Of a stretch of 64,000 nt of DNA, positions 3,046-42,997 are shown piece after piece. The notes below the pieces were generated by a model that was not told the origin of the DNA, ran no database searches, and saw only the letters and a program-made list of their open reading frames with translations. Source of the DNA: a virus; IMG/VR virus record IMGVR_UViG_3300048851_000098, positions 1 through 64,000 of that record; one strand, given 5' to 3'. Numbering within the stretch: the first letter of the stretch is position 1; the number at the start of each line of letters is the position of its first letter. The position numbers and the translations under genes are program-made.

Positions 3046-4571
3046 TCAATCCCGCGAAAATGTTGAATCTCTCTGATTGGGAGTTCGACGGGGATAGATC
3101 CGTTGCCGCTGTCGTTCTTGCTGGCGCCGAACAGCGCGAGGAGAACGGCTACGTCCTGAAGGAAATCCTTCGTACGGGCGAGTGGCCCGTGATCCCTACC
3201 GCTGCGGGCCTCATCAGAATGCCGCTGAGAATCGTGCGTGACGGCAGATCAGACTTCACAAGAGGTCTGATTGCAATGTCTGAGCTGGTGGAGAACTTCA
3301 ACAACGGGGCCATCCCCAACGTTCAGATCCCCCTCGCAGACAGAGCGCGTGACGATCACATCAGAGACGGCAACCTCGCGCGTGTAAATACAGGCTTCGT
3401 TCGTGAGGTCTGGATCGAGGATCAAGACGATGGCATTTCCAAGCTCGTCGCAAAGATGGAGTTCACCGAGCCTGACGTGAAGGAACGCGCTCTGCGCGGG
3501 ACCTTTGCAGATGTCAGTCCTGGGATTCCGTGGCGAGTGTTTTCACGGGGGAGAAGATACGGCGCGTGTCTTGAACACGTCTGCATTACCAATTCTCCGT
3601 TTCAGGATGGACTTGGACCTTTCCTCGCACTCAGCAACACTTTTTCTGAAGACGCTGAAGTTGCGTATTTCTCATCAGAAGCAGTAGTGGAGAGACTCGC
3701 TTCTGACGCAAACGTAGATATCACTCCCGCTGTCATTGACGCCGCACGAATTCTTGAAGCTGCTAACGAGCAGCTTTCTGCAATTCTCGGTTCCAGCTTC
3801 AGAGTTGAGTCAATTCGGGCTGGTGGATTCTATGTTGCAAATGAGAATCTGAATATGTCATGGCTGATTCCATTCAAAGTGGAAGACAGCAAGACAGTAA
3901 TTTCTTCTGTTGATCAGTGGGTTTCTCAGGAAGTAAGAGAGCCAACTGAGAGAAGAGAAACAGAAGAAGAAATAAGAAGAGACGAACCAGTTGAAGAAAG
4001 AAGAGATACTGCTGACGTAGTAAGTATCACTCCTATTTCCGATCTGGATGCGGCTCGTCAGCTCCGTCAGGCTCGATTGGGCCTTTCGGGATCGGTATCC
4101 CCTACAGAGGAGGGCCACGTGCCACTTTCTGCCGAGGAACTGAGCCAGCTCAATCTTTCGGAAATCCCCGAGAGCCAGCGAGCTGTGTTTCAGAAGCTCC
4201 TCAATGAAAACGTGACGCTTTCTGCTCAGACTCGTGAAATCGAGGCAGATCAGCGTATTAGAGAGCTTGAAGGGCTGGGCCTGAGAGATCGTCCCGGCGC
4301 TCTGAAGCTTTACCGCCAGGTGATGCTCAGCGATGACAGCGGTCCTGCTGTTGTTCTTCTGAGCGACAACGGTCAGAACGAAAGAACTCTTACTGCACGT
4401 GAGATTCTTGACCAGTTCATCGACGCCGTAAAGGGTGCCGATGGCAAGGTTCTTCTGAGCGATCAGGCAATTGCATCAGGAAATGACGACAGACCTGCCG
4501 CCACTCCTGATGGCGAGAGAAAGTCCCTTGAAGAGCGTCTTGCGGAAGCAAGAGAAGCGCTCCAAAAGTAA
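3042..4571 (+). CDS. Prohead protease/scaffold protein (Mu gpI-like)
   Basis: TTG 3042 after GAGGAG; ILRTGEW...FADVSPGI...LEHVCITNSPF..GLGPF, then an acidic coiled-coil scaffold; lies before decoration and capsid genes. Confidence 0.75.
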   Translation: MINPAKMLNLSDWEFDGDRSVAAVVLAGAEQREENGYVLKEILRTGEWPVIPTAAGLIRMPLRIVRDGRSDFTRGLIAMSELVENFNNGAIPNVQIPLADRARDDHIRDGNLARVNTGFVREVWIEDQDDGISKLVAKMEFTEPDVKERALRGTFADVSPGIPWRVFSRGRRYGACLEHVCITNSPFQDGLGPFLALSNTFSEDAEVAYFSSEAVVERLASDANVDITPAVIDAARILEAANEQLSAILGSSFRVESIRAGGFYVANENLNMSWLIPFKVEDSKTVISSVDQWVSQEVREPTERRETEEEIRRDEPVEERRDTADVVSITPISDLDAARQLRQARLGLSGSVSPTEEGHVPLSAEELSQLNLSEIPESQRAVFQKLLNENVTLSAQTREIEADQRIRELEGLGLRDRPGALKLYRQVMLSDDSGPAVVLLSDNGQNERTLTAREILDQFIDAVKGADGKVLLSDQAIASGNDDRPAATPDGERKSLEERLAEAREALQK

Positions 4572-10601: not shown

Positions 10602-13600
10602 ATGGCTGACGCTAGATACATCGTAGATCTGATCCTGAATGCTCGGGACAATACTGCTGACGCTTTCAATAGAGCGACAGCAAATATGCGTTCCTTTGAG
10701 TCGCTTCAGAGAGATGTAGAGCGTCAGAACAGAGCTACTGCTGATTCGTTCAGAAACGTTGCTGACAGCATTGAAGGCAACACTTCGCGAATTGACAGAG
10801 CACGCGAGAGATATGAACGACTCTCGAATGCCGCTGTCCGTGCCGAAGTAGAGCTTCAGAGAGCGGCGCAAGCAAATTCTCGCGCACAAGCAGATGCAAA
10901 TGCGTCGGCTGCTGAGCGTGAGGCTGCTTTGCGTCGCCTCGAAGCTGCAACGAAGAGCTATAAGGCGGCCCTCCAAGACGCCAAGAGAGAAGAGGATCGC
11001 TTTTCTGAGTCGGGCGCTCGTGGCCGCGCAAGACGAGTTGCTGATCAAGCAACAGAAATCGCTCAACTTAGAGAGCTTCAGCGTCAAGCTCAGAATGTTG
11101 CTCGCGAAGAGGAACGTCTGAGTCGTGAGCGTCAACAGCGTCAAGCGCGCGAACTTGATGCTCCTAGAAGATATCTGGAACTGCTCAGACAGATTCAGCG
11201 TATCGAGAGAGATCGTGCTCGCGCTGCTGATATTGGCGACACTGTAACCACTGCTCGTCTCGATTTTGATGATCGTGAAGCTCGCCGCAAGGCTCAGGTG
11301 CTCGCCGATGAACTGAGAATTCTGTTTAGAAGAGCAGAAATCAATGTAAATCTGGACGATGCCGAGGCAAGACGGCATGCTGTCGAACTGCTCGCGATGA
11401 AATCAGTTCTCGGTAGAGATATCGAGCTGAATGTAGATGTTGACATTGGTGCTGCACAAGCGAAACTCGCTCTCTTCGAGCAGCAAGTGCAACGTGCGAA
11501 TCGTCCTGGTGCGCTTGGAATTCTGAGTGGATCTATTCGCGAGACAGCAGATGCATTTACGAACGCATCTCAGAAGATCGCAACGTTTGACAACTTCCTG
11601 CGCGGTCTTGCGGCTATCTCTGTTTTCGCATTCTTCAACCAACTGATTCTTCTCGCGGGTTCTGCGGCTAGCAACCTGATCAGCCTTGCGTCGTCGGCCT
11701 CGTACGCTGGCGCGGCCCTTGGTGGTGGTCTGGTCGCTGGCCTTGCTCAGGCCCTCCCGATGCTCGGCATCCTTGCCGCAGCATTGACCCGCTTCAAGGC
11801 GGTTTCCGATGCCGTCAGACAGTCAGATCTTCTGCAACAGCAGGAGAGCTACAGAGCGCCAGCAAGAAATAGAAGAATCGCCGACAGCATCGATCAGGTT
11901 CGCAATGCTCAGGAACGACTTTCTGACGCGAATCGTCGTCAGCAGCAGGCACAGGAACAGCTCACGCAGGCGCGCGAGACAGCGCGACGCAAGCTGGAAG
12001 ACCTGATCCTCACTGAGCGCGGCGCAACGCTGTCTGTTGAAGAATCACAGACAGCTATTCGTAATGCTTCTAGCGTTTCGGATCTTGATCGCGCATTCCT
12101 CACTCGCGATGAAGCAAGATTGAACCTCCGTCGAGTATCGGGCGAACTTGCTACACGTCGCACTGTTGGTATCGAAGGATCACCAGAAGTCAAATCAGCA
12201 CAAGATCAGGTACTTGCCGCAAGACGTGCTGTCGATGAGGCAAGACGTGGAATTGATAGAGCTGCCAGATCTGCTGCTGTTGCTGGTAATGAGGTAACTG
12301 CTGCTGCTGGCAAGCTCAATTATCTGCTCGACAGACTCTCTCCTGCTGAAAGACGCCTTTACACAGCACTTCAACGCTTTCAGGATGAATTCCGTAGAGT
12401 CTCGCAAGTTATTGTCGAGCCGATTATCGACGCAACTGTGCGTGGCTTGGGTCGCATCACGGACATTATGACTGATCCGGCTGTGATGAGAGGTATGACA
12501 GGACTCTCTGAGCAGATGGTGAAAGCCGGAAACCGTGTATTTGATGCGGCTACAAGCGATCAAGCTGTTAGACAGTGGTTGCGAATCACTGAGCAGGCAA
12601 GAGAAAATCTTTTGCCAGTTGCTAACATTTTGGTGAATGTTGGCAGAGGCTTCATGGATATTGCGGAAGGTGCGGGTCCAGCACTTCACCAAATGGTGTT
12701 GTTCTTCCGAGATATTACGAGATCTGCTGCTGAATTCCTTTCTGATGCGCGTAGATCTGGTGAACTGACAGCATTCTTCCTTGAAGGCGTAAGACATCTC
12801 AAAGCATGGGCAGATCTGCTGTGGCAGATCGTTCGCCTGTTCGCCGCTATTACTGGTGCTGGTGGCGGTGCCGATGCTGGTTTCAGACTCGTCACAAGAC
12901 TCGCCGATGCAATTGGTGGTCTTGCCGACAGAGTCAACGACACCGATTCGAGACTCAGCAGATTCTTCCGCACATTCTTTGAAGTCGGACAAAGAATGCT
13001 CTTTGCAATGCTGCCTGTCCTTCAGTCACTTGCAAGAGAATTCGCAAGTCTCTTCACTGAAGACGGTGTGAGATCTGTCCAGTCCTTTGCGTTCTTCTTG
13101 TCTGACGTACTGATTCCAGCAGTTGGACAATTTGCTCGTACAGTCGGGCAAGCGACCACATTCATTGGTGAACTCTTCAGACAGTTCCCAATTCTGAGAG
13201 ACATGATGGTCGGGCTGATTGCCACGATGCTGACGCTCTCAGTCGGCGGCAAGCTCGCGGTGGTCTTCACGCCGATCATTGCTCCGCTCAGATTCCTTGT
13301 CAGATTGCTCGGCACGAGAGAGCAGATTCTTGTTCGTATTCTCGGCCTGCTGTCGAGAATCCCGATCATCGGTGCTGGTCTGGCCGGGCTTGCTGGTCGT
13401 CTCGGCGGTGGAGCTGCTGCCGGCGCTGGTGCGGCGGGGGCTGCCGGTGTTGTTGGTGGCGCGGCTGCTGGTGCTGCGGGCGACGTAGCGAGACAGGGAT
13501 CGCGCCTCGGTGGAATCTTCGGTGGCACATTTGGTGCAGCCGCCAAGGGCCTCCTGAAGAAAGCCGGTTGGATTGGTGTAGGCATCTCCGCAGTGGATGG

Positions 13601-30187: not shown

Positions 30188-30258
30188 GATCCTGTGGGAG
30201 GAATCGAACCCCCACCGTGAATGCCCTGAAGGGGCAGACTGCTTCCAAAGCTCAGGAC
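30188..30258 (-). ncRNA. Isolated tRNA-like element with a 5-nt anticodon loop (CUUCA)
   Basis: Acceptor gtcctgag/cacaggat, D hairpin gctt/aagc, stem tgccc/gggca, T arm ggggg-TTCGATT-cctcc. Confidence 0.6.
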
Positions 30259-33840: not shown

Positions 33841-34075
33841 TCCACCGCAGAGTGCGGGATGACATTCCACCCGTAGTAGCCCTCCGCTTTCACGGCACCG
33901 CATCCCAGGCTCTACGCCAAGAGTGTCCTCAAGGCGCATGCCAACTCCCGCCCCTCTGATGGTGAACACGCATTTCACCAACGGGCTACGTAACGGTTTG
34001 ACGAATCTTCACAAAGCATTACTTCTCGCCGCGCTTTGTTGATAAGATTCCAACCGCGTTAAGAATCGCGTCCCT
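33841..34075 (+). ncRNA. Unassigned structured RNA candidate (3' of rnhA)
   Basis: gtagccc/gggctac, ggtgaa/ttcacc, acaaagc/gctttgt, aatctt/aagatt helices; no credible ORF. Confidence 0.4.
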
Positions 34076-34084
34076 GGACAGTAC

Positions 34085-34123
34085 CAGAAGCCCCGAGCCT
34101 CGCCGCCGGGGCTTCTGTGTTTC
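34085..34123 (+). terminator. Intrinsic terminator
   Basis: cagaagccccg/cggggcttctg stem followed by tgtttc. Confidence 0.75.
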
Positions 34124-34142
34124 TGAGTACGATTCTGACCAC

Positions 34143-34511
34143 GTGCATTACAGAACCCGTCAGCGCCTCCGCGAGCTGGGCTATCCCACCTACGCCCACT
34201 ACCTCCGCTCAGCCATATGGGCCGACATCCGAAAGAACTACTTCGCGATATACAGACGCGAGTGTTGGATTTGCGGAAAGAATCGAGATGTAGCTCTTCA
34301 TCACATCTCCTATGACCGCATTGGTGGAGATGAGCTGTTTGAAGATTTCATTCCGTTGTGTAGGCGACATCATCGCGCTCTGCACAACTTCATGAAATAC
34401 TATCGAGTAGGTCTTATTCACGCACATATTGAATACAAGGCGCATCTCGACAGACCACGGAGAAGACGCAGAAAAAGACGCGCTAGACAGATTCGACGGA
34501 GAGCGATATAG
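34143..34511 (+). CDS. HNH endonuclease
   Basis: CWICG...LHHISY...FIPLCRRHH. Confidence 0.8.
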   Translation: MHYRTRQRLRELGYPTYAHYLRSAIWADIRKNYFAIYRRECWICGKNRDVALHHISYDRIGGDELFEDFIPLCRRHHRALHNFMKYYRVGLIHAHIEYKAHLDRPRRRRRKRRARQIRRRAI

Positions 34512-34632
34512 TTCCCGCTCCTGCGATAGAAGCGTTCACAGGAACATGGTCCGGACACTGGCGCGTGCTCACGTCGGGGGACACGCCATGACAGTGCGCT
34601 GAAGAGGGTCCTAGGGATAAAGCGCACTACCC

Positions 34633-34705
34633 GCCTCGGTCGTCCAGGGGACTAGGACGCTTGGTTGTCGACCAAGAAACCGGAGTTCGAATCTCCGTCG
34701 AGGCG
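34633..34705 (+). tRNA. tRNA-Asp(GTC)
   Basis: Cloverleaf; cttgg-ttGTCga-ccaag. Confidence 0.9.
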
Positions 34706-34707
34706 TT

Positions 34708-34887
34708 ATGAAGTCGGCTACACGTATGTTTGTTGAAGGAATGTCATATCGCGATGTAATGAGAATCGTCGGCATGCGCCAGCGTTACAGTCGCGAAGTG
34801 AATGATCCTGCTCTGCGGCCGGCTCCTCGTCGCAGACCCACGAGACGCCGCGACCGTCGTGCCCCTACAAAACCAATGCGCCGATGA
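34708..34887 (+). CDS. Small basic hypothetical protein (not in the ORF track)
   Basis: MKSATRMFVEGMSYRDVMRIVG..., overlapping the next start (ATGA). Confidence 0.4.
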   Translation: MKSATRMFVEGMSYRDVMRIVGMRQRYSREVNDPALRPAPRRRPTRRRDRRAPTKPMRR

Positions 34888-35123
34888 GATCACGAGCTGT
34901 ACGCCGTCATCATCGTTCCCGTCTGATCAAAAGACGCTCTCGCGATGCACTTGCTGCTTCGGTGATGCATTCTCCCGGAAAGCATCCTGAAGGCGCTCTT
35001 GCTGATAATCAGTATTGGCTCGGGTGTAATCTCCCGAACTGCGGCCTTTGCCATCCGTGGAAGCGATGGAGCCGAAGTGCTGATCGCCACAGAGCAAAGA
35101 TCAGCTTGCACGAGGAAATCTGA
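34884..35123 (+). CDS. Small basic Cys-containing hypothetical protein
   Basis: 79 aa, GCNLPNCGLCHPWK. Confidence 0.55.
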   Translation: MRSRAVRRHHRSRLIKRRSRDALAASVMHSPGKHPEGALADNQYWLGCNLPNCGLCHPWKRWSRSADRHRAKISLHEEI

Positions 35124-35256
35124 GCTGCTAGATTGCATCTCGTGAGCCGTTTCCGCTACATCCGCGCTTCGCGATCAGATCGATCGCGATATACCAGTCG
35201 ATTGCTGCGACTCCGCTAGCGCGCGGGTGAGATATCCCGCGCGCTAGAACAGCAGT
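35124..35256 (+). ncRNA. Unassigned multibranch RNA candidate
   Basis: Closing helix gctgct/agcagt; 8-bp, 5-bp and 12-bp hairpins inside. Confidence 0.5.
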
Positions 35257-35260
35257 GCGC

Positions 35261-35348
35261 GTCGGGGTGGTGAAACATAGGCAGACACGCGGGCCTCAGA
35301 CGCCCGTGCCCCTAACAGGGCGTGAGGGTTCGAATCCCTCTCCCGACA
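35261..35348 (+). tRNA. tRNA-Leu(CAG)
   Basis: Cloverleaf with variable arm; cgggc-ctCAGac-gcccg. Confidence 0.92.
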
Positions 35349-35355
35349 CTTTCAT

Positions 35356-35442
35356 GGCGTCGTGGCGGAATTAGGTATACGCGCGCGGCTGAGTACCGCG
35401 TGGGAGTCAAATCCCTTGGAGGTTCAAGTCCTCTCGACGCTA
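35356..35442 (+). tRNA. tRNA-Leu(GAG)
   Basis: cgcgg-ctGAGta-ccgcg; variable arm. Confidence 0.92.
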
Positions 35443-35459
35443 CCTATAACAAAATAGTT

Positions 35460-35537
35460 GTGGCGATTGTTGAAACTTCAACTGCTCACGTAAGGGGCGA
35501 GCCGAACGTGGGACAGGGAGCTTCAAACAATCGCCAC
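35460..35537 (+). ncRNA. Unassigned rod-like hairpin RNA candidate
   Basis: gtggcgattgtt/aacaatcgccac plus inner helices, about 29 bp in total. Confidence 0.5.
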
Positions 35538-35557
35538 GAGACGAGTGTAGCAGACAC

Positions 35558-35641
35558 GCGCGAGTGGCGGAACGGCAGACGCGCTCGACTCAAAATCGAG
35601 TGTTCCTTGTGAACGTGTGGGTTCGACTCCCACCTTGCGCA
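35558..35641 (+). tRNA. tRNA-Leu(CAA)
   Basis: ctcga-ctCAAaa-tcgag. Confidence 0.92.
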
Positions 35642-35655
35642 TTTAGGTAAAACTT

Positions 35656-35742
35656 GGAGGCTCGCAAGGTTGGCGTGCTTATCGGTCTTGAAAACCGTGA
35701 TGGCTCTAACGAGTCGTGGGGGTTCGATCCCCTCAGCCTCCG
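35656..35742 (+). tRNA. tRNA-Ser(TGA)
   Basis: cggt-ctTGAaa-accg; long variable arm; G73. Confidence 0.9.
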
Positions 35743-35754
35743 TAGTTCCAACAT

Positions 35755-35836
35755 GCCGGGAAGGCCCCAATGGTGGGGCACCTGACTGTAAATCAGGCGT
35801 CTCTGACAACGGCAGGTTCGATCCCTGCTCCCGGCA
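35755..35836 (+). tRNA. tRNA-Tyr(GTA)
   Basis: cctga-ctGTAaa-tcagg. Confidence 0.92.
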
Positions 35837-35864
35837 CTAAGAAAACATAAAAACCCCTGCAAAT

Positions 35865-35952
35865 GGACGGTATCCGAGTGGTTAGGGGCGCGACTGCTAA
35901 TCGCGTAAGACAGAGCGAATCTGTCCGCTGGGTTCGATTCCCAGGCCGTCCG
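35865..35952 (+). tRNA. tRNA-Ser(GCT)
   Basis: cgcga-ctGCTaa-tcgcg; long variable arm. Confidence 0.92.
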
Positions 35953-35978
35953 TACTAATCGTTCTGATCGTTCTTCTC

Positions 35979-36006
35979 TTGACTCTTTGTAGAGGAGTGG
36001 TACTGT
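35979..36006 (+). promoter_or_regulatory. SigA-type promoter candidate
   Basis: TTGACT-16 nt-(TGG)TACTGT upstream of the wHTH gene. Confidence 0.5.
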
Positions 36007-36071
36007 TGTGTGCAAGTCGCCTCGTAATGAGGCTTTCCCACACACCACGATGACCTTAGGAGGCCATCAGC

Positions 36072-36596
36072 ATGACCGCTCTTCTCGAAGAGATGACGAC
36101 CAGAATCGACAGTCGTATGGAGGAGCTTCAGCCGCTCGTCCAGGAGTACGGCGAGTTGGCCGAGGCCAAGGCTCGCCTGACCGGCAGAGAGGTCAACGTC
36201 TCCCTGTCTCCCGCGCGTCGTCGCGGCCGCCCGAGCGCCAAGGACGGATCGGCTCCCCGCGCCGGCAAGCGCACCGACATGGTGATCGCTTACCTGCGCG
36301 AGCATCCGGACGGTGCCACGGTCAATCAGATCGTGGAGGGCACGGGCACGTCGCTCAACTACACCTACGCGATCGTCCGCGATCTCGTGGACGCGGAGCC
36401 GCCCGTCGCCAAGCGCGCGGAGGGCAGAGTGGTCCTGATCGACCCCAACTACCGTTCGCCGAGCGAGGACGAGAACAAGGGCGACGAGGGGAACAGCGAT
36501 GGCGACTCGACGCAGGGCGAGCAGAAGCCCGACGAGACGCCGGCCCCCGACAAGGCCAAGCCCGCCGCGAGAGCGAGAGCGACCAGCAGAAAGTGA
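36072..36596 (+). CDS. Coiled-coil plus winged-helix DNA-binding protein
   Basis: N-terminal coiled coil, RRRGRP AT-hook-like motif, VIAYLREHPDGATVNQIVEGTGTSLNYTY wHTH. Confidence 0.75.
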   Translation: MTALLEEMTTRIDSRMEELQPLVQEYGELAEAKARLTGREVNVSLSPARRRGRPSAKDGSAPRAGKRTDMVIAYLREHPDGATVNQIVEGTGTSLNYTYAIVRDLVDAEPPVAKRAEGRVVLIDPNYRSPSEDENKGDEGNSDGDSTQGEQKPDETPAPDKAKPAARARATSRK

Positions 36597-36601
36597 TCTC
36601 C

Positions 36602-36648
36602 TAGCGGCTCGCTTGTAATCACTCAGGCGAGCCGCTAAGATCCTTTTT
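36602..36648 (+). terminator. Terminator hairpin overlapping a TTGTAA-17-TAAGAT promoter candidate
   Basis: tagcggctcgctt/aggcgagccgcta stem followed by ccttttt. Confidence 0.65.
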
Positions 36649-36659
36649 GGAACAAAGAA

Positions 36660-36732
36660 GGGTCGTTAGCTCAGTCGGTAGAGCAGGAGACTCTTAATCT
36701 CAAGGCCGTAGGTTCGATCCCTACACGACCCA
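36660..36732 (+). tRNA. tRNA-Lys(CTT)
   Basis: gaga-ctCTTaa-tctc. Confidence 0.92.
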
Positions 36733-36734
36733 TA

Positions 36735-36979
36735 CTGGTTATATCGTTGATATGGTCAGAACTACCCCCGAAAGGTAAGAGCGGGCCACGTCCGGGTACC
36801 CCGAGGCCGGACAACAATTTCATAGTGTCCCGAGAGCGGGTAGCTGACGGTAGGAGAAATCCGTACTAAGGTCCGACTCCGGATATCTGTACGTGACAGA
36901 GAAATTGCCTTCGGGAACCGATACACGGAATGATCGGATCGCGGACAAATGTGGGGGTGCGTCCACTATAAAAACGCAC
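36735..36979 (+). ncRNA. Unassigned ~245-nt structured RNA with 3' pseudoknot
   Basis: Two GAAA tetraloops, a cUUCGg loop, several helices, H-type pseudoknot gtgg/ccac plus gtgcgt/acgcac. Confidence 0.65.
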
Positions 36980-36983
36980 ACTC

Positions 36984-37059
36984 GCCCCGTTGGTCTAGTT
37001 AGGCTTAGGACGCCTGCCTCTCACGCAGGAGATCACCGGTTCAAATCCGGTACGGGGTT
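36984..37059 (+). tRNA. tRNA-Glu(CTC)
   Basis: cctgc-ctCTCac-gcagg. Confidence 0.92.
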
Positions 37060-37323
37060 TAGGGAATTGGAAAGCCAACTAATCACAAAGCGCGAGCGTT
37101 TCTAGAGCGACTGCGGCGTGCGTCATTAGAGTAGGAGCTATCGATTCCCGATCTCGGAATCGGATTCCTCTTACCTTGCCTTTCCTCTAATGGGTCTGGC
37201 TGGGAAGATCCCCACGCAGCCCTCTGGCACCGTTCCAATGGGATTCGGCATTGCCATTCCCGGAGCAACGCTTTGAGGTCGGTCGGCATACGACTAGAGG
37301 AATCCGATTCCATCTTCTGCGAA
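37060..37323 (+). ncRNA. Unassigned ~260-nt structured RNA
   Basis: Perfect 16-bp long-range helix 37156-37171/37296-37311; crossing 8-bp helix 37124-37131/37185-37192. Confidence 0.6.
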
Positions 37324-37380
37324 GTGGCGTTTGGCCGGACTTGGTAGCCGGTGTAAACGGGTTCGATTCCTGGCGTCACG
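37324..37380 (+). ncRNA. Anticodon-less mini-tRNA (57 nt)
   Basis: Acceptor gtggcgt/gcgtcac, one D-like hairpin, T arm cggg-TTCGATT-cctg. Confidence 0.65.
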
Positions 37381-37383
37381 CTT

Positions 37384-37542
37384 ATGAAATTCAGACCAAT
37401 CGACGGCATGGCTGTAGAAGTTGATGATGAGGAAATCATTGTCAACTATTCGGGCGAAGGTACCGATTTGCTCTTGCATCAGGCACATCTGGCCGATAAG
37501 ATCATCGACAGATGCGTGAGAGCGCATGATTCTGCCCGGTAA
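37384..37542 (+). CDS. Small hypothetical protein (not in the ORF track)
   Basis: MKFRPIDGMAVEVDDEEIIVNY...; stop lies inside tRNA-Thr. Confidence 0.45.
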   Translation: MKFRPIDGMAVEVDDEEIIVNYSGEGTDLLLHQAHLADKIIDRCVRAHDSAR

Positions 37543-37605
37543 GCTTTGTTGGCGAAGCGCTGGTTTTGTAATCCAGTGAGCAGGGTTCGATTCCTTGACC
37601 GGGCG
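37534..37605 (+). tRNA. tRNA-Thr(TGT)
   Basis: ctgg(t)-ttTGTaa-(t)ccag; acceptor gcccggt/accgggc. Confidence 0.88.
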
Positions 37606-37610
37606 CTTGC

Positions 37611-37985
37611 ATGGACAACCCGCGTCGAGATGAACTTGGCAATTACATCTTTCTGCCGCAAACCCGGTTCGATCCCGAACCTTGGGCGAGAGTTCTGCGC
37701 CGCGATCCATGCTCATATTGCGACGGCGCGGGCGGCACTGTAGATCACATCGTGCCGCTGGCTCATGGCGGCGAGAAGGCCGTTTCTGTCAACGGCACCG
37801 GCGCCTGCTCGACCTGTAACAGTCTGAGCCACCAGAAGTCCGACACGCCCCTCCTCCAATTCCTCCTCAAGCGAGCACAGCGGAGAGACGCCTACGAGCA
37901 CTACGTCAGATCCTCTCCGCAGATCACTCACAGATTCTTCACGGAGGAGCAGTTGGAACTTCTACGTCGAGTTGCAGAAAGCTAG
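37611..37985 (+). CDS. HNH endonuclease
   Basis: CSYCD...TVDHIVPLAHGG...GACSTCN. Confidence 0.85.
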   Translation: MDNPRRDELGNYIFLPQTRFDPEPWARVLRRDPCSYCDGAGGTVDHIVPLAHGGEKAVSVNGTGACSTCNSLSHQKSDTPLLQFLLKRAQRRDAYEHYVRSSPQITHRFFTEEQLELLRRVAES

Positions 37986-38010
37986 CGAATACTGTAGTAT
38001 TGACCCTCTT

Positions 38011-38083
38011 GTGCCTATAGCTCAATTGGTAGAGCAGTGGACTTCTAATCCAAAGGTTGAGGGTTCGAGCCCCTCTAGGCATG
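38011..38083 (+). tRNA. tRNA-Arg(TCT)
   Basis: tgga-ctTCTaa-tcca. Confidence 0.9.
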
Positions 38084-38086
38084 TAT

Positions 38087-38473
38087 ATGAAGGAATATAG
38101 AGATTTCATGTGCTCTTGTAAGCCTGACGGCAAAGAGCGATGTGAAGACACTCTAAGAAGAGTTTGCAGACTTCTTAGAGTTGAACCAACAAAGCTTCTC
38201 ACTGGTGTTGTTTACAACATGCAGCATCTTGAGAATTGGAGAGATAGACCGGGAACTGTTTGGATTTGCGGTAATATCGAATCTATCTATTCTGATATGT
38301 GGGCTGCGATCAATGCAGAGATCCAGTATCACGATGAGGAAGAAGATGAATTCAGACTTATTGCAAGAATTCGAGTTCAATGTGATCTGATTGAACATGG
38401 CGTTGCTCGTGTTTATGAGCTGGCGCTTAGAGCAGCAGAAGATTTCGAAGCGTCTATAGCTCAGTCTGGTTAG
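38087..38473 (+). CDS. Hypothetical protein
   Basis: ORF filling the tRNA spacer; stop lies inside tRNA-Ile. Confidence 0.55.
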   Translation: MKEYRDFMCSCKPDGKERCEDTLRRVCRLLRVEPTKLLTGVVYNMQHLENWRDRPGTVWICGNIESIYSDMWAAINAEIQYHDEEEDEFRLIARIRVQCDLIEHGVARVYELALRAAEDFEASIAQSG

Positions 38474-38524
38474 AGCGTCCGTCTGATAAGCGGAAGGCCC
38501 GAGGTTCAAATCCTTGTAGGCGCA
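38450..38524 (+). tRNA. tRNA-Ile(GAT)
   Basis: tccgt-ctGATaa-gcgga. Confidence 0.92.
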
Positions 38525-38527
38525 CCT

Positions 38528-38737
38528 ATGGCATTGCATAAAGAGGATTTCGACGGACAGATCTGCCACTGCGGCGATGATGGATGCGATATGAGCATTA
38601 TGTATCTGCATTCGAGTTGTCATCTTGGTGCGCCTACGGAGGCTTCGTATTCCGGAGGCGAGATTACAATCAGATGTTCTGTGTGTAAAACCTTTATCGC
38701 TTCGATAGCTGTCGCATCAAATGCAACAACGAATTAG
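38528..38737 (+). CDS. Small Cys/His-rich protein
   Basis: CHC, HSSCH, CSVC. Confidence 0.55.
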   Translation: MALHKEDFDGQICHCGDDGCDMSIMYLHSSCHLGAPTEASYSGGEITIRCSVCKTFIASIAVASNATTN

Positions 38738-39011
38738 TCACAAGCTCACTGCTCACCACTTCCGTCATAATCGTAAAGGCGGAACGATTATTGGTGTCTG
38801 TAGCTGCGGATATCGCCATGGCATCTTTCGCAAGATGCGTCGTACACAGCTCACTCGCGGAATCGTCTGTTTCTTCCGTGGTGGGCATCGATGGGGCGAG
38901 GAAGATACCTGGGAGGTCGGCCCGGCCGGCTTCAGAGACGGCGAAGGTGAAGCTTCTGGCCGTTTCAAGCAATGCGATTTCTGCTATAAGATCGAAGATA
39001 CGCACCTGTAG
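38721..39011 (+). CDS. Small Cys/His-rich hypothetical protein
   Basis: CSCG, C...H, CDFC; stop lies inside tRNA-Gly. Confidence 0.4.
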   Translation: MQQRISHKLTAHHFRHNRKGGTIIGVCSCGYRHGIFRKMRRTQLTRGIVCFFRGGHRWGEEDTWEVGPAGFRDGEGEASGRFKQCDFCYKIEDTHL

Positions 39012-39073
39012 TGTTAGTGGTAACACGTCAGCCTTCCAAGCTGAAGTGCTCGGTTCGAATCCGAGTAGGTGCT
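39002..39073 (+). tRNA. tRNA-Gly(TCC)
   Basis: tcagc-ctTCCaa-gctga; U73. Confidence 0.92.
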
Positions 39074-39115
39074 TTTGTTCGCTAGAGGGCGAACGAAACG
39101 AACCGAACAAAAGCC

Positions 39116-39144
39116 TTGACACGCCCCAAAACCTCCTCTAAGAT
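39116..39144 (+). promoter_or_regulatory. SigA-type promoter
   Basis: TTGACA-17 nt-TAAGAT. Confidence 0.7.
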
Positions 39145-39220
39145 GCAAAGCATGATGCAGCCGCCCACCACTCAGAATTGCCGCCGATGGCGATTCCATC
39201 GACCGTGCCGAAATATGCAT

Positions 39221-39291
39221 GGGCGAGTGGTGCAACGGCAGCACAGCGGCTTCCAACCCCGCTGATCCGGGTTCGATTCCTGGCTCGCCCG
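39221..39291 (+). tRNA. tRNA-Trp(CCA)
   Basis: gcgg(c)-ttCCAac-(c)ccgc with a C31:C39 mismatch; G73. Confidence 0.8.
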
Positions 39292-39495
39292 CTTCTGGTC
39301 CTCGCCGGCCACAAGGTGAACGTGCGCACTGCGACGGCAGAGCGCGGCCCCCACAGCGTTCACTGGTCGTTTGGACGCCAGAGCGCCTGTCTGAAGCAGA
39401 GGATAAGATAGGCGGCTAGCCGGGTGGTCTTCGCACTCCGCGACCGACAGACGCCACCATACGCCTCTCCAAGACGGAGATAGAGAGGACTTCGA
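39292..39495 (+). ncRNA. Unassigned ~200-nt structured RNA
   Basis: gtgaacg/cgttcac, cgcctgtct/agataggcg, ggtgg/ccacc, cctctc/gagagg helices. Confidence 0.55.
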
Positions 39496-39568
39496 TGCGC
39501 GATAGTTCAATTGGCAGAACGCTCGACTGTTAATCGAGTAGTTGAAGGTTCAAATCCTTCTCGCGCAG
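39496..39568 (+). tRNA. tRNA-Asn(GTT)
   Basis: ctcga-ctGTTaa-tcgag. Confidence 0.92.
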
Positions 39569-39569
39569 T

Positions 39570-39752
39570 ATGCGAATAGCAGCTCGTGTAGCACATACAA
39601 GAAACGGACCTGTTGTTACTATCGTTGATGATGTTCCTAACGATTGTGGTCCTGGCGAATATGTGATTCTGGAAGAACGCGAAGGAAAATACACAGAAGT
39701 CGGAGAATTTGGTAAAGATATAGATACTCGCACTGATAGCTCAGTCCGGTAG
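39570..39752 (+). CDS. Small hypothetical protein
   Basis: 60 aa; stop lies inside tRNA-Phe. Confidence 0.45.
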   Translation: MRIAARVAHTRNGPVVTIVDDVPNDCGPGEYVILEEREGKYTEVGEFGKDIDTRTDSSVR

Positions 39753-39804
39753 TAGCGCCTGTCTGAAAAGCAGGAGGTCCCTGGTTCGATTCCAGGTCAG
39801 TGCA
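39730..39804 (+). tRNA. tRNA-Phe(GAA)
   Basis: cctgt-ctGAAaa-gcagg. Confidence 0.92.
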
Positions 39805-39805
39805 T

Positions 39806-39880
39806 GGGTCCGTAGCATAATTGGAACAATGCCCCTGGTTGTGGTCCAGGTCGATGCGGATTCGAATTCCGCCGGACCCC
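39806..39880 (+). tRNA. tRNA-His(GTG)
   Basis: cctgg-ttGTGgt-ccagg; C73; G-1 is not encoded (T at 39805). Confidence 0.88.
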
Positions 39881-40014
39881 TATGAAAATGATCGGGAGAT
39901 GTGTCGGATTGGGATACTGCTGGTGTCCCGAGTGCCGTCCTCGCGGCGATAGCAGAAAATCAGAAAGACGACGGATCAAGCGGCGCGAGCGTCAGAAATG
40001 GAAGAGAATCGTGA

Positions 40015-40218
40015 ATGGCGCGCAAATCTAGAGATCTGAGAGTAAGAGTAGGAGACGTTCTGACTGAGCATCAAGTCAGTCAGATTGAAAAACTAGAAGC
40101 GGAATGCGTAGCTCTTGCCAAGGAAGCAAATCGTTGGCGAGAGGAAGCGCATCGATTGAAGACTAGACGTAGCGCGGTGCGTGAATGGCTAGCGGGTCGC
40201 CTGCAAAGCGAACGATAG
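40015..40218 (+). CDS. Small coiled-coil hypothetical protein
   Basis: 67 aa; its 3' end runs into tRNA-Cys. Confidence 0.4.
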   Translation: MARKSRDLRVRVGDVLTEHQVSQIEKLEAECVALAKEANRWREEAHRLKTRRSAVREWLAGRLQSER

Positions 40219-40241
40219 GGGTTCGATTCCCCTCCGCGCTT
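40171..40241 (+). tRNA. tRNA-Cys(GCA)
   Basis: tcgc-ctGCAaa-gcga; U73. Confidence 0.9.
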
Positions 40242-40259
40242 CTTTGCTAAACTGCACGC

Positions 40260-40463
40260 ATGAATCTAAGAATTATTCGCAAAGGTACAATTTGGAAGTA
40301 TAAAAACAGAACGGGAGCTGCTACTATTGTAAAAGTCATCTTTGTCCATACCATCGCAAGTGTCACATGGGTTGCCTTTATGCCGATTCACCGCGATAGA
40401 CTTGGCGGGGTAATGACAAGAGAAGACTTTTGTGATACATTCGAGTGGATGTCGAGCAAATAA
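40260..40463 (+). CDS. Small hypothetical protein
   Basis: ORF filling the spacer. Confidence 0.5.
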   Translation: MNLRIIRKGTIWKYKNRTGAATIVKVIFVHTIASVTWVAFMPIHRDRLGGVMTREDFCDTFEWMSSK

Positions 40464-40536
40464 GCCCGGATAACTCAGCGGTCAGAGTGCGGTCCTTACA
40501 AGACTGTGGTCCTTGGTTCGAATCCAAGTCTGGGCA
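40464..40536 (+). tRNA. tRNA-Val(TAC)
   Basis: cggtc-ctTACaa-gactg. Confidence 0.92.
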
Positions 40537-40539
40537 CTT

Positions 40540-40746
40540 ATGAGTCTTTTTGTATGTGAAGAATGTAGATGTATCGAGAACACTGCAACCAGTAAATACT
40601 GGTTGCGTAGCGAGATCGACGGAAAAAGACTCTGTTCGCTGTGTGACCCTCGAATTGGAAAATGGCATAACATCTTTCCGCGTGAGACAATTTCCGAATT
40701 TGAACAACGAATCGGAAGACCAGTAGATCGCAGCAACTATTTGTAA
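40540..40746 (+). CDS. Small Zn-binding hypothetical protein
   Basis: MSLFVCEECRCIENTA...LCSLC...GKWH. Confidence 0.6.
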   Translation: MSLFVCEECRCIENTATSKYWLRSEIDGKRLCSLCDPRIGKWHNIFPRETISEFEQRIGRPVDRSNYL

Positions 40747-40752
40747 CAACCA

Positions 40753-40827
40753 CGGGATATAGCGCAGCCTGGCTAGCGCGCTCGCTTTGGGAGCGAGAGG
40801 TCGAAGGTTCGAATCCTTCTATCCCGA
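40753..40827 (+). tRNA. tRNA-Pro(TGG)
   Basis: ctcgc-ttTGGga-gcgag. Confidence 0.93.
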
Positions 40828-40828
40828 C

Positions 40829-40899
40829 TGCGGAGTAGTCTAACGGCAAGACGCACGGTTCTGGCCCGTGAGTAGAGGGTTCGAGTCCTTCCTCCGCAT
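40829..40899 (+). tRNA. tRNA-Gln(CTG)
   Basis: cacgg-ttCTGgc-ccgtg. Confidence 0.9.
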
Positions 40900-40900
40900 T

Positions 40901-40996
40901 ATGCCGCTACATGATCTTATTGCTCTAGGAATTCTTATTGCTGTGATACTGCTAATTGGATTGCTTTTGTTGATTTTCTTCGAACTGAAAGACTGA
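40901..40996 (+). CDS. 31-aa single-TM peptide (not in the ORF track)
   Basis: MPLHDLIALGILIAVILLIGLLLLIFFELKD. Confidence 0.5.
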   Translation: MPLHDLIALGILIAVILLIGLLLLIFFELKD

Positions 40997-41002
40997 CCCC
41001 TT

Positions 41003-41074
41003 GGGGGTCTAGCTCGAAGGTCGAGCAGGGAGCTTTTAACTCTCCGGTGATGGGTTCGATTCCCTCGGCCCCCA
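41003..41074 (+). tRNA. tRNA-Lys(TTT)
   Basis: gggag-ctTTTaa-ctctc; imperfect T stem. Confidence 0.85.
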
Positions 41075-41076
41075 CT

Positions 41077-41268
41077 ATGAAAACTGAAACGTTTTATTGT
41101 GATCGGTGTAAAATAGAAGTTCATCCGGAGCGTCTGCATAGGATCACACATGATTGGTATCCTGCTGCGAATGTCTCTGAGACTTATGATTTTTGCGTAA
41201 ATTGTATTACTGATATCGTAAATGTAATCAATCGCGCAAGTGATACAAATCAGTTTCGATTTCGATGA
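41077..41268 (+). CDS. Small Zn-binding hypothetical protein
   Basis: CDRC...DFCVNC. Confidence 0.55.
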   Translation: MKTETFYCDRCKIEVHPERLHRITHDWYPAANVSETYDFCVNCITDIVNVINRASDTNQFRFR

Positions 41269-41339
41269 TGGCGGATCGTCTAATGGTAAGACGCAAGCCT
41301 TTGGAGCTTGCTATCGGGGTTCGAATCCCTGTCCGCCAG
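41269..41339 (+). tRNA. tRNA-Gln(TTG)
   Basis: caagc-ctTTGga-gcttg. Confidence 0.92.
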
Positions 41340-41448
41340 TGGCAATGACTAGACAGCGTACGAGTTGAACAGGGAAGCTGGCACGTCAGGCGTGTAGAGG
41401 TTGAGTCGGTACCAGGCTCGCCGTCCCTTGCGGCCCTTGTCATTGCCA
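41340..41448 (+). ncRNA. Unassigned ~110-nt structured RNA
   Basis: Terminal 10-bp helix tggcaatgac/gtcattgcca beginning right after tRNA-Gln. Confidence 0.5.
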
Positions 41449-41468
41449 ATTCGTTTACCGCAGCACCT

Positions 41469-41542
41469 ACCCCGGTAGCTCAACTGGACAGAGCGCTGGT
41501 CTACGGAACCAGAGGTTTGGGGTTCGAATCCCTAGCGGGGTG
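41469..41542 (+). tRNA. tRNA-Arg(ACG)
   Basis: ctggt-ctACGga-accag. Confidence 0.9.
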
Positions 41543-41552
41543 CTGTAACAAT

Positions 41553-41646
41553 GGGCCGGTAGCCAAGGTTAGGACAGGCCACTCCCCGGCAGTGGTAGCT
41601 GTCGGAAGAGAAGGAGTGAAAGCGGGTTCGAATCCCGTCCGGTCCA
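41553..41646 (+). tRNA. Atypical tRNA-Arg(CCG): C33 and a long unpaired variable region
   Basis: Acceptor gggccgg/ccggtcc, cact-ccCCGgc-agtg, canonical T arm, 94 nt. Confidence 0.6.
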
Positions 41647-41647
41647 T

Positions 41648-41677
41648 TTGACACAGACTATGATTCTTGTGTATAGT
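41648..41677 (+). promoter_or_regulatory. SigA-type promoter
   Basis: TTGACA-18 nt-TATAGT. Confidence 0.7.
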
Positions 41678-41791
41678 AGCTCTACCTTCGCAAAAGGTGC
41701 GTTACGAGTAGGTTCTGGAAATTTCTGCAAACCATCAACTGGTTGAGAAACGCCTAAAGTTGCATCGAAGTCAGAATAGATGCAGCTCCGC

Positions 41792-41862
41792 TGCGGATTG
41801 GTGGATTGGTACCACGCGAGGCTCATAACCTTGAGGGACGGGTTCGATTCCCGTATCCGCTA
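41792..41862 (+). tRNA. tRNA-Met(CAT), initiator-like
   Basis: cgagg-ctCATaa-ccttg; U1:U72 mismatch, G2-C71, C3-G70, A73. Confidence 0.85.
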
Positions 41863-41936
41863 TGTGCGATAGCTGGCCGCGCATCTCTGAGTGTGCCTTT
41901 GGCATTTATCAGACAAGGGTCTTCGACTCCCAGCTA
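41862..41936 (+). ncRNA. Pseudoknotted/tRNA-like spacer RNA candidate
   Basis: tagctgg/ccagcta, atgtgcg/cgcgcat, tctga/tcaga, gggtc-ttc-gactc. Confidence 0.45.
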
Positions 41937-41940
41937 ACTA

Positions 41941-42012
41941 GGGCGATTGGTGTAATCGGGAACACACTAGCTTTGCAAGCTAGAATTGGGGGTTCGACTC
42001 CCCCATTGTCCA
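41941..42012 (+). tRNA. tRNA-Ala(TGC)
   Basis: ctagc-ttTGCaa-gctag; G3:U70. Confidence 0.92.
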
Positions 42013-42020
42013 TGCCGAGC

Positions 42021-42087
42021 CGGATGTGATGGATTATCTTGGTAAATGGTGCGACCCACCTACCGAGTTCGAGTCTCGGGTATCCAC
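42021..42087 (+). ncRNA. Degenerate mini-tRNA (5-nt anticodon loop)
   Basis: Acceptor cggatgt/gtatcca, ggtg-cgacc-cacc, T arm ccgag-TTCGAGT-ctcgg. Confidence 0.55.
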
Positions 42088-42238
42088 CGCAATTGATTTG
42101 CTCGGCAATCTAAATCCACAAAGGAGGCGAATCATGCTGAAGCGCCTGCTTGTCCTTAGGACAAGCTAGCCTCAGTCGAAGGGACGGATGAACCGTCTCT
42201 AGTGCCGGCTGGGGCGCCCCGAAAGGGGGTGAAACAGC

Positions 42239-42415
42239 ATGGCTAGTGGAACGCCCCATACGGCGAAGTCCACCACTACGAAGACGAACAAAAAACGTCT
42301 TCGCAAGGGCGGTCGTAACGAGCGAAAGTACGCGAGATATCGCGCTCGCGTCGGTAAGCCGAACGGCCCCGGTATGCCCGGTAATAAGTCGGGCAAGAAC
42401 AAGATCCATTCATAG
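42239..42415 (+). CDS. 58-aa highly basic protein (not in the ORF track)
   Basis: GGGGGTGA RBS; KTNKKRLRKGGRNERKYARYRARVGKPNGPG. Confidence 0.65.
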   Translation: MASGTPHTAKSTTTKTNKKRLRKGGRNERKYARYRARVGKPNGPGMPGNKSGKNKIHS

Positions 42416-42447
42416 GGGGTGAGCTAATGTCTCCCCACAAGGCAACG

Positions 42448-42478
42448 GCCCCGCTTTCGAGTGGGGCTTTTGTCGTTC
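42448..42478 (+). terminator. Intrinsic terminator closing the tRNA region
   Basis: gccccgc/gtggggc followed by tttt. Confidence 0.75.
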
Positions 42479-42479
42479 C

Positions 42480-42581
42480 CTAGAAGACAAGTACGAGCAT
42501 CAGAATTACTGCTGCCCAAAACGCAATAAGGAAAGCAGTAATAGTTACCAGCATCTCTGTCTCTCGTGTACGATTGTTCAT
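42480..42581 (-). CDS. 33-aa single-TM peptide (not in the ORF track)
   Basis: MNNRTRETEMLVTITAFLIAFWAAVILMLVLVF. Confidence 0.45.
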   Translation of the reverse strand: MNNRTRETEMLVTITAFLIAFWAAVILMLVLVF

Positions 42582-42634
42582 CTTCGCGATTTTACACGAT
42601 TACCTTGCTATCAACTTCGCGCTAAGATAGCATC

Positions 42635-42997
42635 ATGCAAGAAGATCAAAACCCTGATCGGATCTACATCAGGGAGGCTGCGGAGATGCTGAATCGTCGC
42701 ATGCCCACACTGCGAAAGTGGGATCGCGATAGAGAACTTCCTACGCATCTCTGCCCAAGACGCGGTATTCGTGGTTGGCGATATTGGAGTCCTGAGCAGA
42801 TCGAAGGAATCCGGCAATGGCTTCGGGATACTGATAAACGTCCCGGAAAGAGTTTGCCGCATTACAATCCCACAGAAGAACAACTGAATAACGCAATCGC
42901 AGCAATGCGAAGACCACGATGGAGATTCGGAAAAGCCGGACCATCTGGTATTGTTTTCACAGAAGAAAAAATAGAAAAGGAAAACAATGGCGACTAA
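42635..42997 (+). CDS. MerR-like HTH DNA-binding protein
   Basis: YIREAAEMLNRRMPTLRKWD...GWRYWSPEQI. Confidence 0.8.
   Translation: MQEDQNPDRIYIREAAEMLNRRMPTLRKWDRDRELPTHLCPRRGIRGWRYWSPEQIEGIRQWLRDTDKRPGKSLPHYNPTEEQLNNAIAAMRRPRWRFGKAGPSGIVFTEEKIEKENNGD

Follow-up and report, generated by a model that had tools for sequence, protein, structure and literature searches.

The window analysed here comprises bases 1-64000 of the 124,171-base-pair (bp) IMG/VR virus record IMGVR_UViG_3300048851_000098, which is estimated to be 85% complete, and the subject of this analysis is an array of transfer RNA (tRNA) genes in the middle of the window together with the spacers between these genes. ARAGORN predicted 27 tRNA genes on the plus strand at 34632-42012, and a Tyr-type tRNA at 35755-35836, which was detected by Rfam only, brings the total to 28 (Table 1). 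In the cases inspected, the CCA ends are not encoded in the tRNA genes. A helicase gene and an RNase H gene are located upstream of the array and a DnaB-type helicase gene downstream, and HNH endonuclease genes are found both inside the array and just upstream of it. The cumulative GC skew has its minimum at 34000-35500, where gene orientation switches from minus to plus beside the replication genes. An earlier note on this DNA had proposed that the phage uses tRNAs and tRNA mimics as processing punctuation to release an array of novel structured RNAs. The tRNA array and its non-coding spacers are real, but support for the view that novel structured RNAs are arrayed there is only partial.

Ten of the 18 spacers longer than 75 nucleotides (nt) open with an open reading frame (ORF) of 31-128 codons, the ATG of which lies 1-5 nt after the discriminator base of the preceding tRNA or, in one case, behind a tRNA look-alike without an anticodon arm (mini-tRNA). 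When an ATG ORF of at least 25 codons starting within 6 nt is counted as abutting, the background amounts to 5.8% at random positions and to 14 of 268 tRNAs (5%) in other phage loci, so that the excess in the array is about tenfold. As judged by eye, most tRNA 3' ends before the abutting ORFs are devoid of a Shine-Dalgarno sequence, and there is no room for one outside the tRNA. The simplest reading would be that tRNA excision creates near-leaderless messenger RNAs (mRNAs), as in mitochondrial punctuation. In the mitochondrial tRNA punctuation model (Ojala, Montoya and Attardi 1981), as far as it is presented in PMC4633059, coding sequences abut tRNAs as they do here, and excision would leave little or no leader in both cases. 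The present case differs from that description in that it concerns a bacteriophage, only ten ORFs and a gap of 1-5 nt. Such an accumulation of ORFs at tRNA 3' ends would make the locus a concrete case for tRNA punctuation and near-leaderless translation in a bacteriophage. Inside the ORF of the HNH endonuclease in the array, a T-arm-like 16-mer is present at 37661-37676, possibly by chance or as a tRNA remnant.

The element directly behind tRNA-Ala at the end of the array had been listed among three anticodon-defective tRNA mimics. By its motifs and covariation, it is a Y RNA of the phage's own Ro60 system (Y4) and belongs to a known family. Its first base is the base after the tRNA-Ala discriminator. 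The two ends pair over 8 bp to close the element, the conserved helix of the Ro60 type comes next, and the interior contains a small hairpin and another that resembles a T arm. A gene for a TROVE/Ro60 protein is located at about 79.7-80.6 kilobases (kb) of the genome on the minus strand, about 38-39 kb from Y4. Directly upstream of Ro60 lie two YrlA matches below the gathering score (42.9 and 41.7 bits versus 69; E about 1e-7) and one match to RF01656, the nematode sbRNA family, which we take to be a Y RNA homologue. In a focused Rfam scan, RF01656 also matched 42011-42108 (22.8 bits, E 0.046). The 5' strand of Y4 holds a 10-nt block, a 5-nt gap and an 8-nt block, and its 3' strand a complementary 9-nt block, all of which are common to the three Y RNAs beside Ro60; two of them show exactly the pattern of this 23-nt motif, and the third a near-identical one. 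Y4 had no match to YrlA (RF02553) even at E<=10 and did not reach its gathering score, and a tRNA match of Rfam was likewise absent from the region (42021) even at E<=10. Further copies among the spacers were looked for and rejected, as no place in the genome other than 42013 and the three beside Ro60 has the paired motifs.

A search with the 23-nt motif retrieved 17 viral contigs, of which about ten hold real Y RNAs. The family was assessed by alignment and pair counts on eight short phage Y RNAs including Y4. Their two-helix consensus has 94% of cells paired and a compensatory change in 12 of 19 pairs, a value reached by none of 500 shuffles, and slid controls gave 35-46%. The terminal helix (helix 1) had served as a selection criterion and is 100% paired, whereas helix 2, which is of the Ro60 type and was not selected for, reaches 89% pairing, and in six of its pairs both partners have changed.

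Phage Y RNAs are already known from a search that kept only candidates up to 4 kb from Ro60 and dropped hits overlapping tandem tRNAs (Chen et al. 2014, PMC4201824). Y4 resembles these bacterial and phage Y RNAs (YrlA/YrlB, RF02553) in its long terminal stem, its Ro60-type helix, its T-arm-like module and the presence of Ro60 in the genome, but it lies 39 kb from Ro60 on the opposite strand and is fused to the 3' end of tRNA-Ala. The inner module of YrlA is ordered as T arm, stem and D arm, that of Y4 as hairpin and then T arm. Since the published search was limited to 4 kb, the distance of Y4 from Ro60 and its fusion to a tRNA represent a new placement, not a new kind, and such search rules miss copies embedded in tRNA arrays. 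A Y RNA within or adjacent to a tRNA array is also present in four other Ro60 phages (L043, L038, L042 and L031), where it neighbours Ro60, with the order Gln-Met-Ala-Y RNA-Asn-Asp-Ro60 in L043; this makes co-expression with the phage tRNAs plausible. Among relatives identified by their DnaB, no Y RNA motif was found after the array. Unusual tRNA-shaped elements with acceptor and T arms and aberrant middles, some of 44-51 nt, are present between Y RNA and Ro60 at L043:9380-9650 and L042:1553-2171. Directly 3' of Y4, at 42120-42171, a strong Shine-Dalgarno sequence is followed by an 11-codon ORF and then an 8-bp hairpin.

With a probability of roughly 60%, this part of the phage genome is a tRNA array of composite nature that evolves rapidly, and not a single system of new RNAs. 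It would be read from multiple promoters, its tRNAs would punctuate small mRNAs and one Y RNA, and the other spacers would be regulatory, tRNA-derived or unstructured. As to what is new, this amounts to a variant on phage tRNA clusters with associated stable RNAs and on Ro60/Y RNA systems. The proposed tRNA punctuation fits the sequence mainly for small protein genes and one Y RNA, and the set of unknown RNAs that it was thought to release is borne out only in part.

The eight blocks that had been put forward as RNAs are tRNA spacers and hold no convincing ORF, as claimed; that they start or end near tRNA boundaries is true by construction, the blocks being the spacers themselves. Folding was compared with dinucleotide shuffles by z-scores, for which 20 coding pieces of 130 nt from the same window served as controls (mean z near -0.6, standard deviation near 1.15, minimum -3.05). 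Heavy pairing, seen by eye in all blocks, applies to part of them: five of the eight (36733, 39293, 41340, 41648 and 41863) fold like the coding controls, the block at 35124 is borderline, and the hairpin at 35458 and the domain at 37156 lie beyond the controls. This calls for caution, as most tRNA spacers judged paired by eye are not more structured than coding sequence. The z-score of Y4 is also just inside the control minimum. An Rfam scan of the listed blocks returned no family at E<=5, and over 34500-42700 there was no match at this threshold to GOLLD, ROOL, other large phage RNAs or ribozymes; GOLLD and ROOL are alike in their position beside phage tRNA genes, but the elements found here are far smaller.

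These results bear on the idea that the non-coding spacers form a battery of new stable functional RNAs, which would be freed at tRNA ends and act as decoys, sponges or translation modulators. The phage T4 tRNA cluster, which yields two stable RNAs of unrecognised function (species 1 and 2), provides a case in principle; there, the non-tRNA stable RNAs lie within the cluster and are released by tRNA-processing enzymes. Eight spacers of 78-265 nt without a convincing ORF or Rfam match, two elements with very strong folds and leader hairpins that keep pairing despite differing stem sequences would fit. However, five of the eight blocks do not fold better than coding controls, the 41648 spacer opens with a promoter-like site and an unlisted spacer holds a conserved promoter, the tRNAs of relatives follow one another at distances of 2-20 nt and none of the spacers is present in them, and one of the supposedly unknown RNAs is a Y RNA. 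None of the features described suggests a role as decoy, sponge or modulator. A battery of this kind is therefore distinctly unlikely.

Table 1. Features of the tRNA array and its surroundings (aa, amino acids; z, folding z-score; MFE, minimum free energy)
Feature	Position	Strand	Evidence and remarks
Leader hairpin, copy 1	34593-34628	+	3 nt before tRNA-Asp
tRNA gene array	34632-42012	+	28 genes, all 20 amino acids; ARAGORN and Rfam
ORF, 59 aa	34708-34887	+	Starts 2 nt after tRNA-Asp discriminator
Non-coding stretch before tRNA-Leu(cag)	35124-35260	+	z -2.37 (+), -2.05 (-); two G+C-rich palindromic hairpins; borderline
Long near-perfect hairpin, about 35 bp, between tRNA-Leu(gag) and tRNA-Leu(caa)	35458-35540	+	Folding z-scores
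Terminator-like 14-bp hairpin and T run	36602-36637	+	After ORF 36072-36596
Non-coding Lys-Glu spacer	36733-36983	+	z -1.47; 11-bp hairpin at 5' end, 6-bp hairpin 4 nt before tRNA-Glu
156-nt domain closed by a perfect 16-bp helix	37156-37311	+	Inverted repeat; z -5.1 (37150-37318)
tRNA look-alike without anticodon arm, 57 nt	37324-37380	+	Match to covariance model R1; ATG 3 nt later
ORF, 52 aa	37384-37542	+	3 nt after mini-tRNA; coding score 0.26 per codon, within the true-frame range (codon usage separates short ORFs weakly)
HNH endonuclease ORF	37611-37985	+	5 nt after tRNA-Thr discriminator
Leader hairpin, copy 2	37971-37998	+	No ACGCC upstream; 11 nt before tRNA-Arg(tct), at end of HNH ORF
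ORF, 128 aa	38087-38473	+	3 nt after tRNA-Arg(tct) discriminator
ORF, 69 aa, cysteine-rich	38528-38737	+	3 nt after tRNA-Ile discriminator
Promoter and leader of tRNA-Trp	39116-39219	+	Gly-Trp spacer, outside listed blocks; -35/-10 boxes 17 nt apart
Trp-Asn spacer	39293-39495	+	z -1.05
Leader hairpin, copy 3	39384-39414	+	Trp-Asn spacer
Leader hairpin, copy 4	39464-39488	+	7 nt before tRNA-Asn
ORF, 60 aa	39570-39752	+	1 nt after tRNA-Asn
ORF, 49 aa	39882-40031	+	1 nt after tRNA-His; weak PHROG match, E 0.0013
ORF, 68 aa	40540-40746	+	3 nt after tRNA-Val discriminator; phrog_11861, E 7.6e-14, aligned from residue 1 of both
ORF, 31 aa, hydrophobic	40901-40996	+	1 nt after tRNA-Gln(ctg)
ORF, 63 aa, cysteine-rich	41077-41268	+	2 nt after tRNA-Lys(ttt) discriminator; phrog_2569, E 0.0023, from residue 3
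Non-coding Gln-Arg spacer	41340-41468	+	z -0.62; 10-bp closing stem, overall fold not above chance
94-nt tRNA look-alike	41553-41646	+	Rfam tRNA 35 bits; MFE -44 kcal/mol; z -3.8 (41552-41647)
Promoter-like site	41648-41677	+	11 of 12 consensus positions; directly after odd tRNA; consensus match only
Spacer	41648-41791	+	z -0.94
Leader hairpin, copy 5	41758-41787	+	4 nt before tRNA-Met
Spacer	41863-41940	+	z -1.24
Cloverleaf-like fold without D arm, between tRNA-Met and tRNA-Ala	41870-41936	+	z -1.2 to -1.8, inside control range
Fourth Y RNA (Y4)	42013-42107	+	Motifs, covariation, RF01656 match, z -2.65 (42013-42110)

Besides these two elements, the odd tRNA at 41553-41646 clearly exceeds the control range (z -3.8). 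The hairpin, folded as 35455-35545, has z-scores of -6.5 and -7.0 on the plus strand and of -5.6 on the minus strand, and neither an Rfam match at E<=5 nor a homologue among the fetched loci was found for 35458-35540. The closing helix of the 37156-37311 domain is built from two copies of a 13-nt palindrome (37156 and 37299), and the 3' end of the domain lies 12 nt before the mini-tRNA at 37324. Elsewhere in the genome, the palindrome has one copy only, at genome position 77709 with one mismatch, which is again upstream of a tRNA look-alike. These features raise the question of whether the long hairpin and the paired palindromes act in the DNA, either as operators to which a dimeric regulator binds or as signals in replication or recombination. 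The confinement of the palindrome to two sites and one copy upstream of another tRNA look-alike, the far better folding of both strands of 35458-35540 than of shuffles and the GC-skew minimum near 34.5-35 kb beside replication genes are in line with this. However, the hairpin is 6 kcal/mol more stable on the plus strand than on the minus strand, owing to G-U pairs, the 16-bp match of the closing helix runs 3 nt beyond the palindrome, and the turn in GC skew coincides with the change in gene orientation. A role in the DNA is accordingly considered very unlikely. At genome 77440-77860 on the minus strand (L004:13440-13860), a tRNA body has a large insert in place of the anticodon loop and is preceded by a -35/-10 promoter match and a hairpin with the palindrome core of 37156/37299.

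All three supposed tRNA mimics are present where they had been placed, namely Y4 at 42013-42107, a weak tRNA match of 35 bits at 41553 and the mini-tRNA at 37324-37380. In the mini-tRNA, an acceptor stem of 7 bp is combined with a D arm that has a 5-bp stem and GG in its loop; after a linker of 5 nt comes a T arm whose loop follows the consensus and which is nearly identical to the T arm of tRNA-Trp. It has no match to Rfam tRNA (RF00005) even at E<=10 and does not form a four-arm cloverleaf. A pattern search for a D loop located 9-14 nt from a T loop yielded more than 115 viral stretches, and filtering for acceptor and T-stem pairing left 36, among which a uniform architecture of 57-58 nt was found in five contigs, or pairs of identical ones, that are independent of one another. 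Where the locus holds tRNAs, the mini-tRNAs of these other phages lie just downstream of them on the same strand. In the alignment of the class, 97.5% of cells are paired and 11 of 16 pairs are compensatory. All seven acceptor pairs covary, although pairing in the acceptor and T stems was a selection criterion, whereas the D stem and total size were not selected for and the D stem is nonetheless 95% paired.

A covariance model (R1) was built from the five mini-tRNAs of other phages and matches 37324-37380 over its full length without insertion (18.9 bits, E 6e-4), which places the element within the 55-62-nt class. Further examples of 55-62 nt were found with R1, and the architecture is present in at least six unrelated phage contigs. 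A second mini-tRNA of 56 nt is encoded in the same genome at 94252-94307 on the minus strand (L005:10252-10307), far from the array. A 180-kb viral record (L066) carries four paralogous mini-tRNAs on the minus strand, at 350-410, 2052-2113, 3556-3610 and 10701-10761; each is followed by the same conserved sequence of about 40 nt and is hence part of a longer repeated cassette, and no ordinary tRNA was found at this locus. A link of mini-tRNAs to Ro60 was rejected, since none of five mini-tRNA records has a TROVE gene, two of them being at least 97% complete. An ATG following the mini-tRNA, as in the present array, was not generally seen in other phages. A full-text literature search found no description of arm-less phage tRNA look-alikes, which is weak evidence of novelty. 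They recur in unrelated phages and possibly represent an RNA class that has been overlooked.

With 35 bits against a gathering score of 29, the odd tRNA at 41553-41646 lies above the Rfam threshold for tRNAs, and its acceptor, D and T arms are normal. It has an insertion of about 26 nt in the anticodon loop according to Rfam, and in the MFE fold the arm is a helix of 6 and 8 bp with a 7-nt bulge and a 4-nt loop; a 7-nt anticodon loop with U33 is absent. The alternative reading by ARAGORN, with anticodon CCG and a 27-nt variable region, needs C33 and uses a base required by the D stem. The first four acceptor pairs are those of the phage tRNA-Ala, including G3:U70, and position 73 is A, so alanine charging would be plausible. 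In this respect the element resembles the tRNA-like domain of transfer-messenger RNA (tmRNA), which has alanine identity without an anticodon, but it is devoid of an mRNA-like part and of pseudoknots. A permuted tmRNA at 41553-42204 was called by ARAGORN only and was rejected, as the Rfam family tmRNA_permuted matches merely the 17-nt T arm (E 9.8).

For the look-alikes and the unstructured spacers, an explanation without any function of their own would be that they are dead tRNA genes and small ORFs left over from duplication, deletion and homing-endonuclease traffic. The HNH endonuclease genes inside and just upstream of the array, the complete difference of the array interior between relatives and the close match of the mini-tRNA T arm to that of tRNA-Trp would be expected from such decay. 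So would the cloverleaf-like fold at 41870-41936, which is weak, has no tRNA match in Rfam, resembles a degraded cloverleaf and is possibly a decayed tRNA. Against this, the mini-tRNA retains its 7-bp acceptor stem and consensus T and D loops, has counterparts of the same architecture in at least six unrelated contigs as well as a second one in its own genome, and lacks only the anticodon arm, and the arm of the odd tRNA is unusually stable and fully closed, unlike random damage. Decay as the general explanation is thus improbable.

Candidate control elements were found in several of the remaining intervals. The promoter and leader of tRNA-Trp (39116-39219) match positions 140-242 of the relative L010, which has 56% DnaB identity (nhmmer, E 4e-4); both boxes and a leader of about 45 nt are kept, while the promoter spacer differs. 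The approximately 45 nt upstream of tRNA-Trp (39160-39219; L010:185-242) are about 90% identical, in comparison to only about 80% for the tRNA-Trp genes, and the leader therefore seems to be under sequence constraint and not under pairing constraint. A further promoter-like site at 34484 is a consensus match only. A family of five leader hairpins shares the loop ends, with ACGCC upstream in four copies, and their stems differ in sequence but keep pairing. All are on the plus strand in the array, and four of the five lie 3-11 nt before a tRNA. Five copies in the 7.5 kb of the array stand against 0.017 per kb in 2.6 megabases of other phage DNA. The hairpin loops were also considered as -10 boxes, which was rejected by eye due to a misfit in spacing.

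Among cultured phages, matches at the DNA level were limited to the tRNAs, and DnaB reached at most 28.5% identity (Gordonia and Mycobacterium phages). The similarities of the tRNAs and of DnaB suggest an actinobacterial host. Many uncultivated phages have a DnaB that is 45-69% identical, the best being P0002 with 69% on a 71-kb contig. Queries of the viral contig collection with DnaB alone, with ORF 36072-36596 and with P0015 each gave no match. A DnaB alignment covered six viral and 15 metagenome loci with 36-59% identity, most of which end inside or before the array. The relatives keep the gene order from 42635 to DnaB, but those with 56-59% DnaB identity share none of the small ORFs or listed spacers of the array, and L010 has 11 tRNAs packed with gaps of 2-20 nt. 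Because the downstream genes are shared and the ORFs and spacers of the array are not, the array interior appears to be in rapid flux, which speaks for a patchwork of parts rather than for a single coherent RNA system.

What has been shown is the anatomy of the array, together with the statistics given above, that Y4 belongs to the Y RNA family and that arm-less tRNA look-alikes recur; the preferred reading of a composite array starts from there. The array would be read from several sigma-70-type promoters, of which the one at 39116 is supported by conservation and those at 34484 and 41648 are consensus matches; the latter would drive tRNA-Met, the 78-nt spacer, tRNA-Ala and Y4. At the tRNA ends, RNase P of the host and a nuclease for 3' processing, taken to be RNase Z because no CCA is encoded, would cut the long transcripts arising from such co-transcription. 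Three kinds of product might result from these putative cleavage sites. The first would be small mRNAs of the ten ORFs, with an ATG 1-5 nt from the new 5' end, for which leaderless or near-leaderless translation is proposed; the 57-nt look-alike would act as an extra cut site before ORF 37384-37542. The second would be Y4, which would begin right after the tRNA-Ala discriminator and join the Ro60/Y RNA system of the phage. The third would be leader and trailer pieces ending in stable hairpins, for which a role in shielding the upstream RNA from 3' exonucleases after RNase P cleavage is conceivable.

Several points weigh against this account. A leader of 1-5 nt with a 5' monophosphate differs from a classical leaderless mRNA, and the account presupposes that RNAs with this kind of end are translated. 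In total, promoter-like sites are no more numerous in the region than in shuffles. The two strongest structures, at 35458-35540 and 37156-37311, have no place in the account and are left unassigned, and the lack of conservation at 56-59% DnaB identity would also be compatible with lineage-specific RNAs.

A further-reaching version would see in the array a mitochondrion-like scheme in which tRNAs and purpose-built non-decoding look-alikes, namely the arm-less mini-tRNAs and an alanine-type tRNA whose anticodon arm is sealed, serve as cleavage signals that free leaderless mRNAs, a Ro60-bound Y RNA and hairpin-protected pieces, and in which the arm-less tRNA stands for a phage RNA class that is widespread but undescribed and has its own role, be it in processing, in aminoacyl transfer or in evading defence. 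This version is tentative and on balance rather unlikely. A comparison for the mini-tRNA is offered by MALAT1-mascRNA and related tRNA-like signals for 3'-end processing, where a non-decoding tRNA shape likewise stands directly behind a folded RNA, and 37324-37380 could in the same way set the 3' end of the domain before it and the 5' end of the next RNA. mascRNA retains a shortened anticodon stem, whereas 37324-37380 is without any anticodon arm and occurs in a prokaryotic setting. Outside the array, at 30189-30257 on the minus strand, lies a further tRNA-shaped element that was missed by ARAGORN and Rfam and scores 17.1 bits with R1; it has acceptor and T arms and, as seen by eye, a 5-nt 'anticodon' loop.

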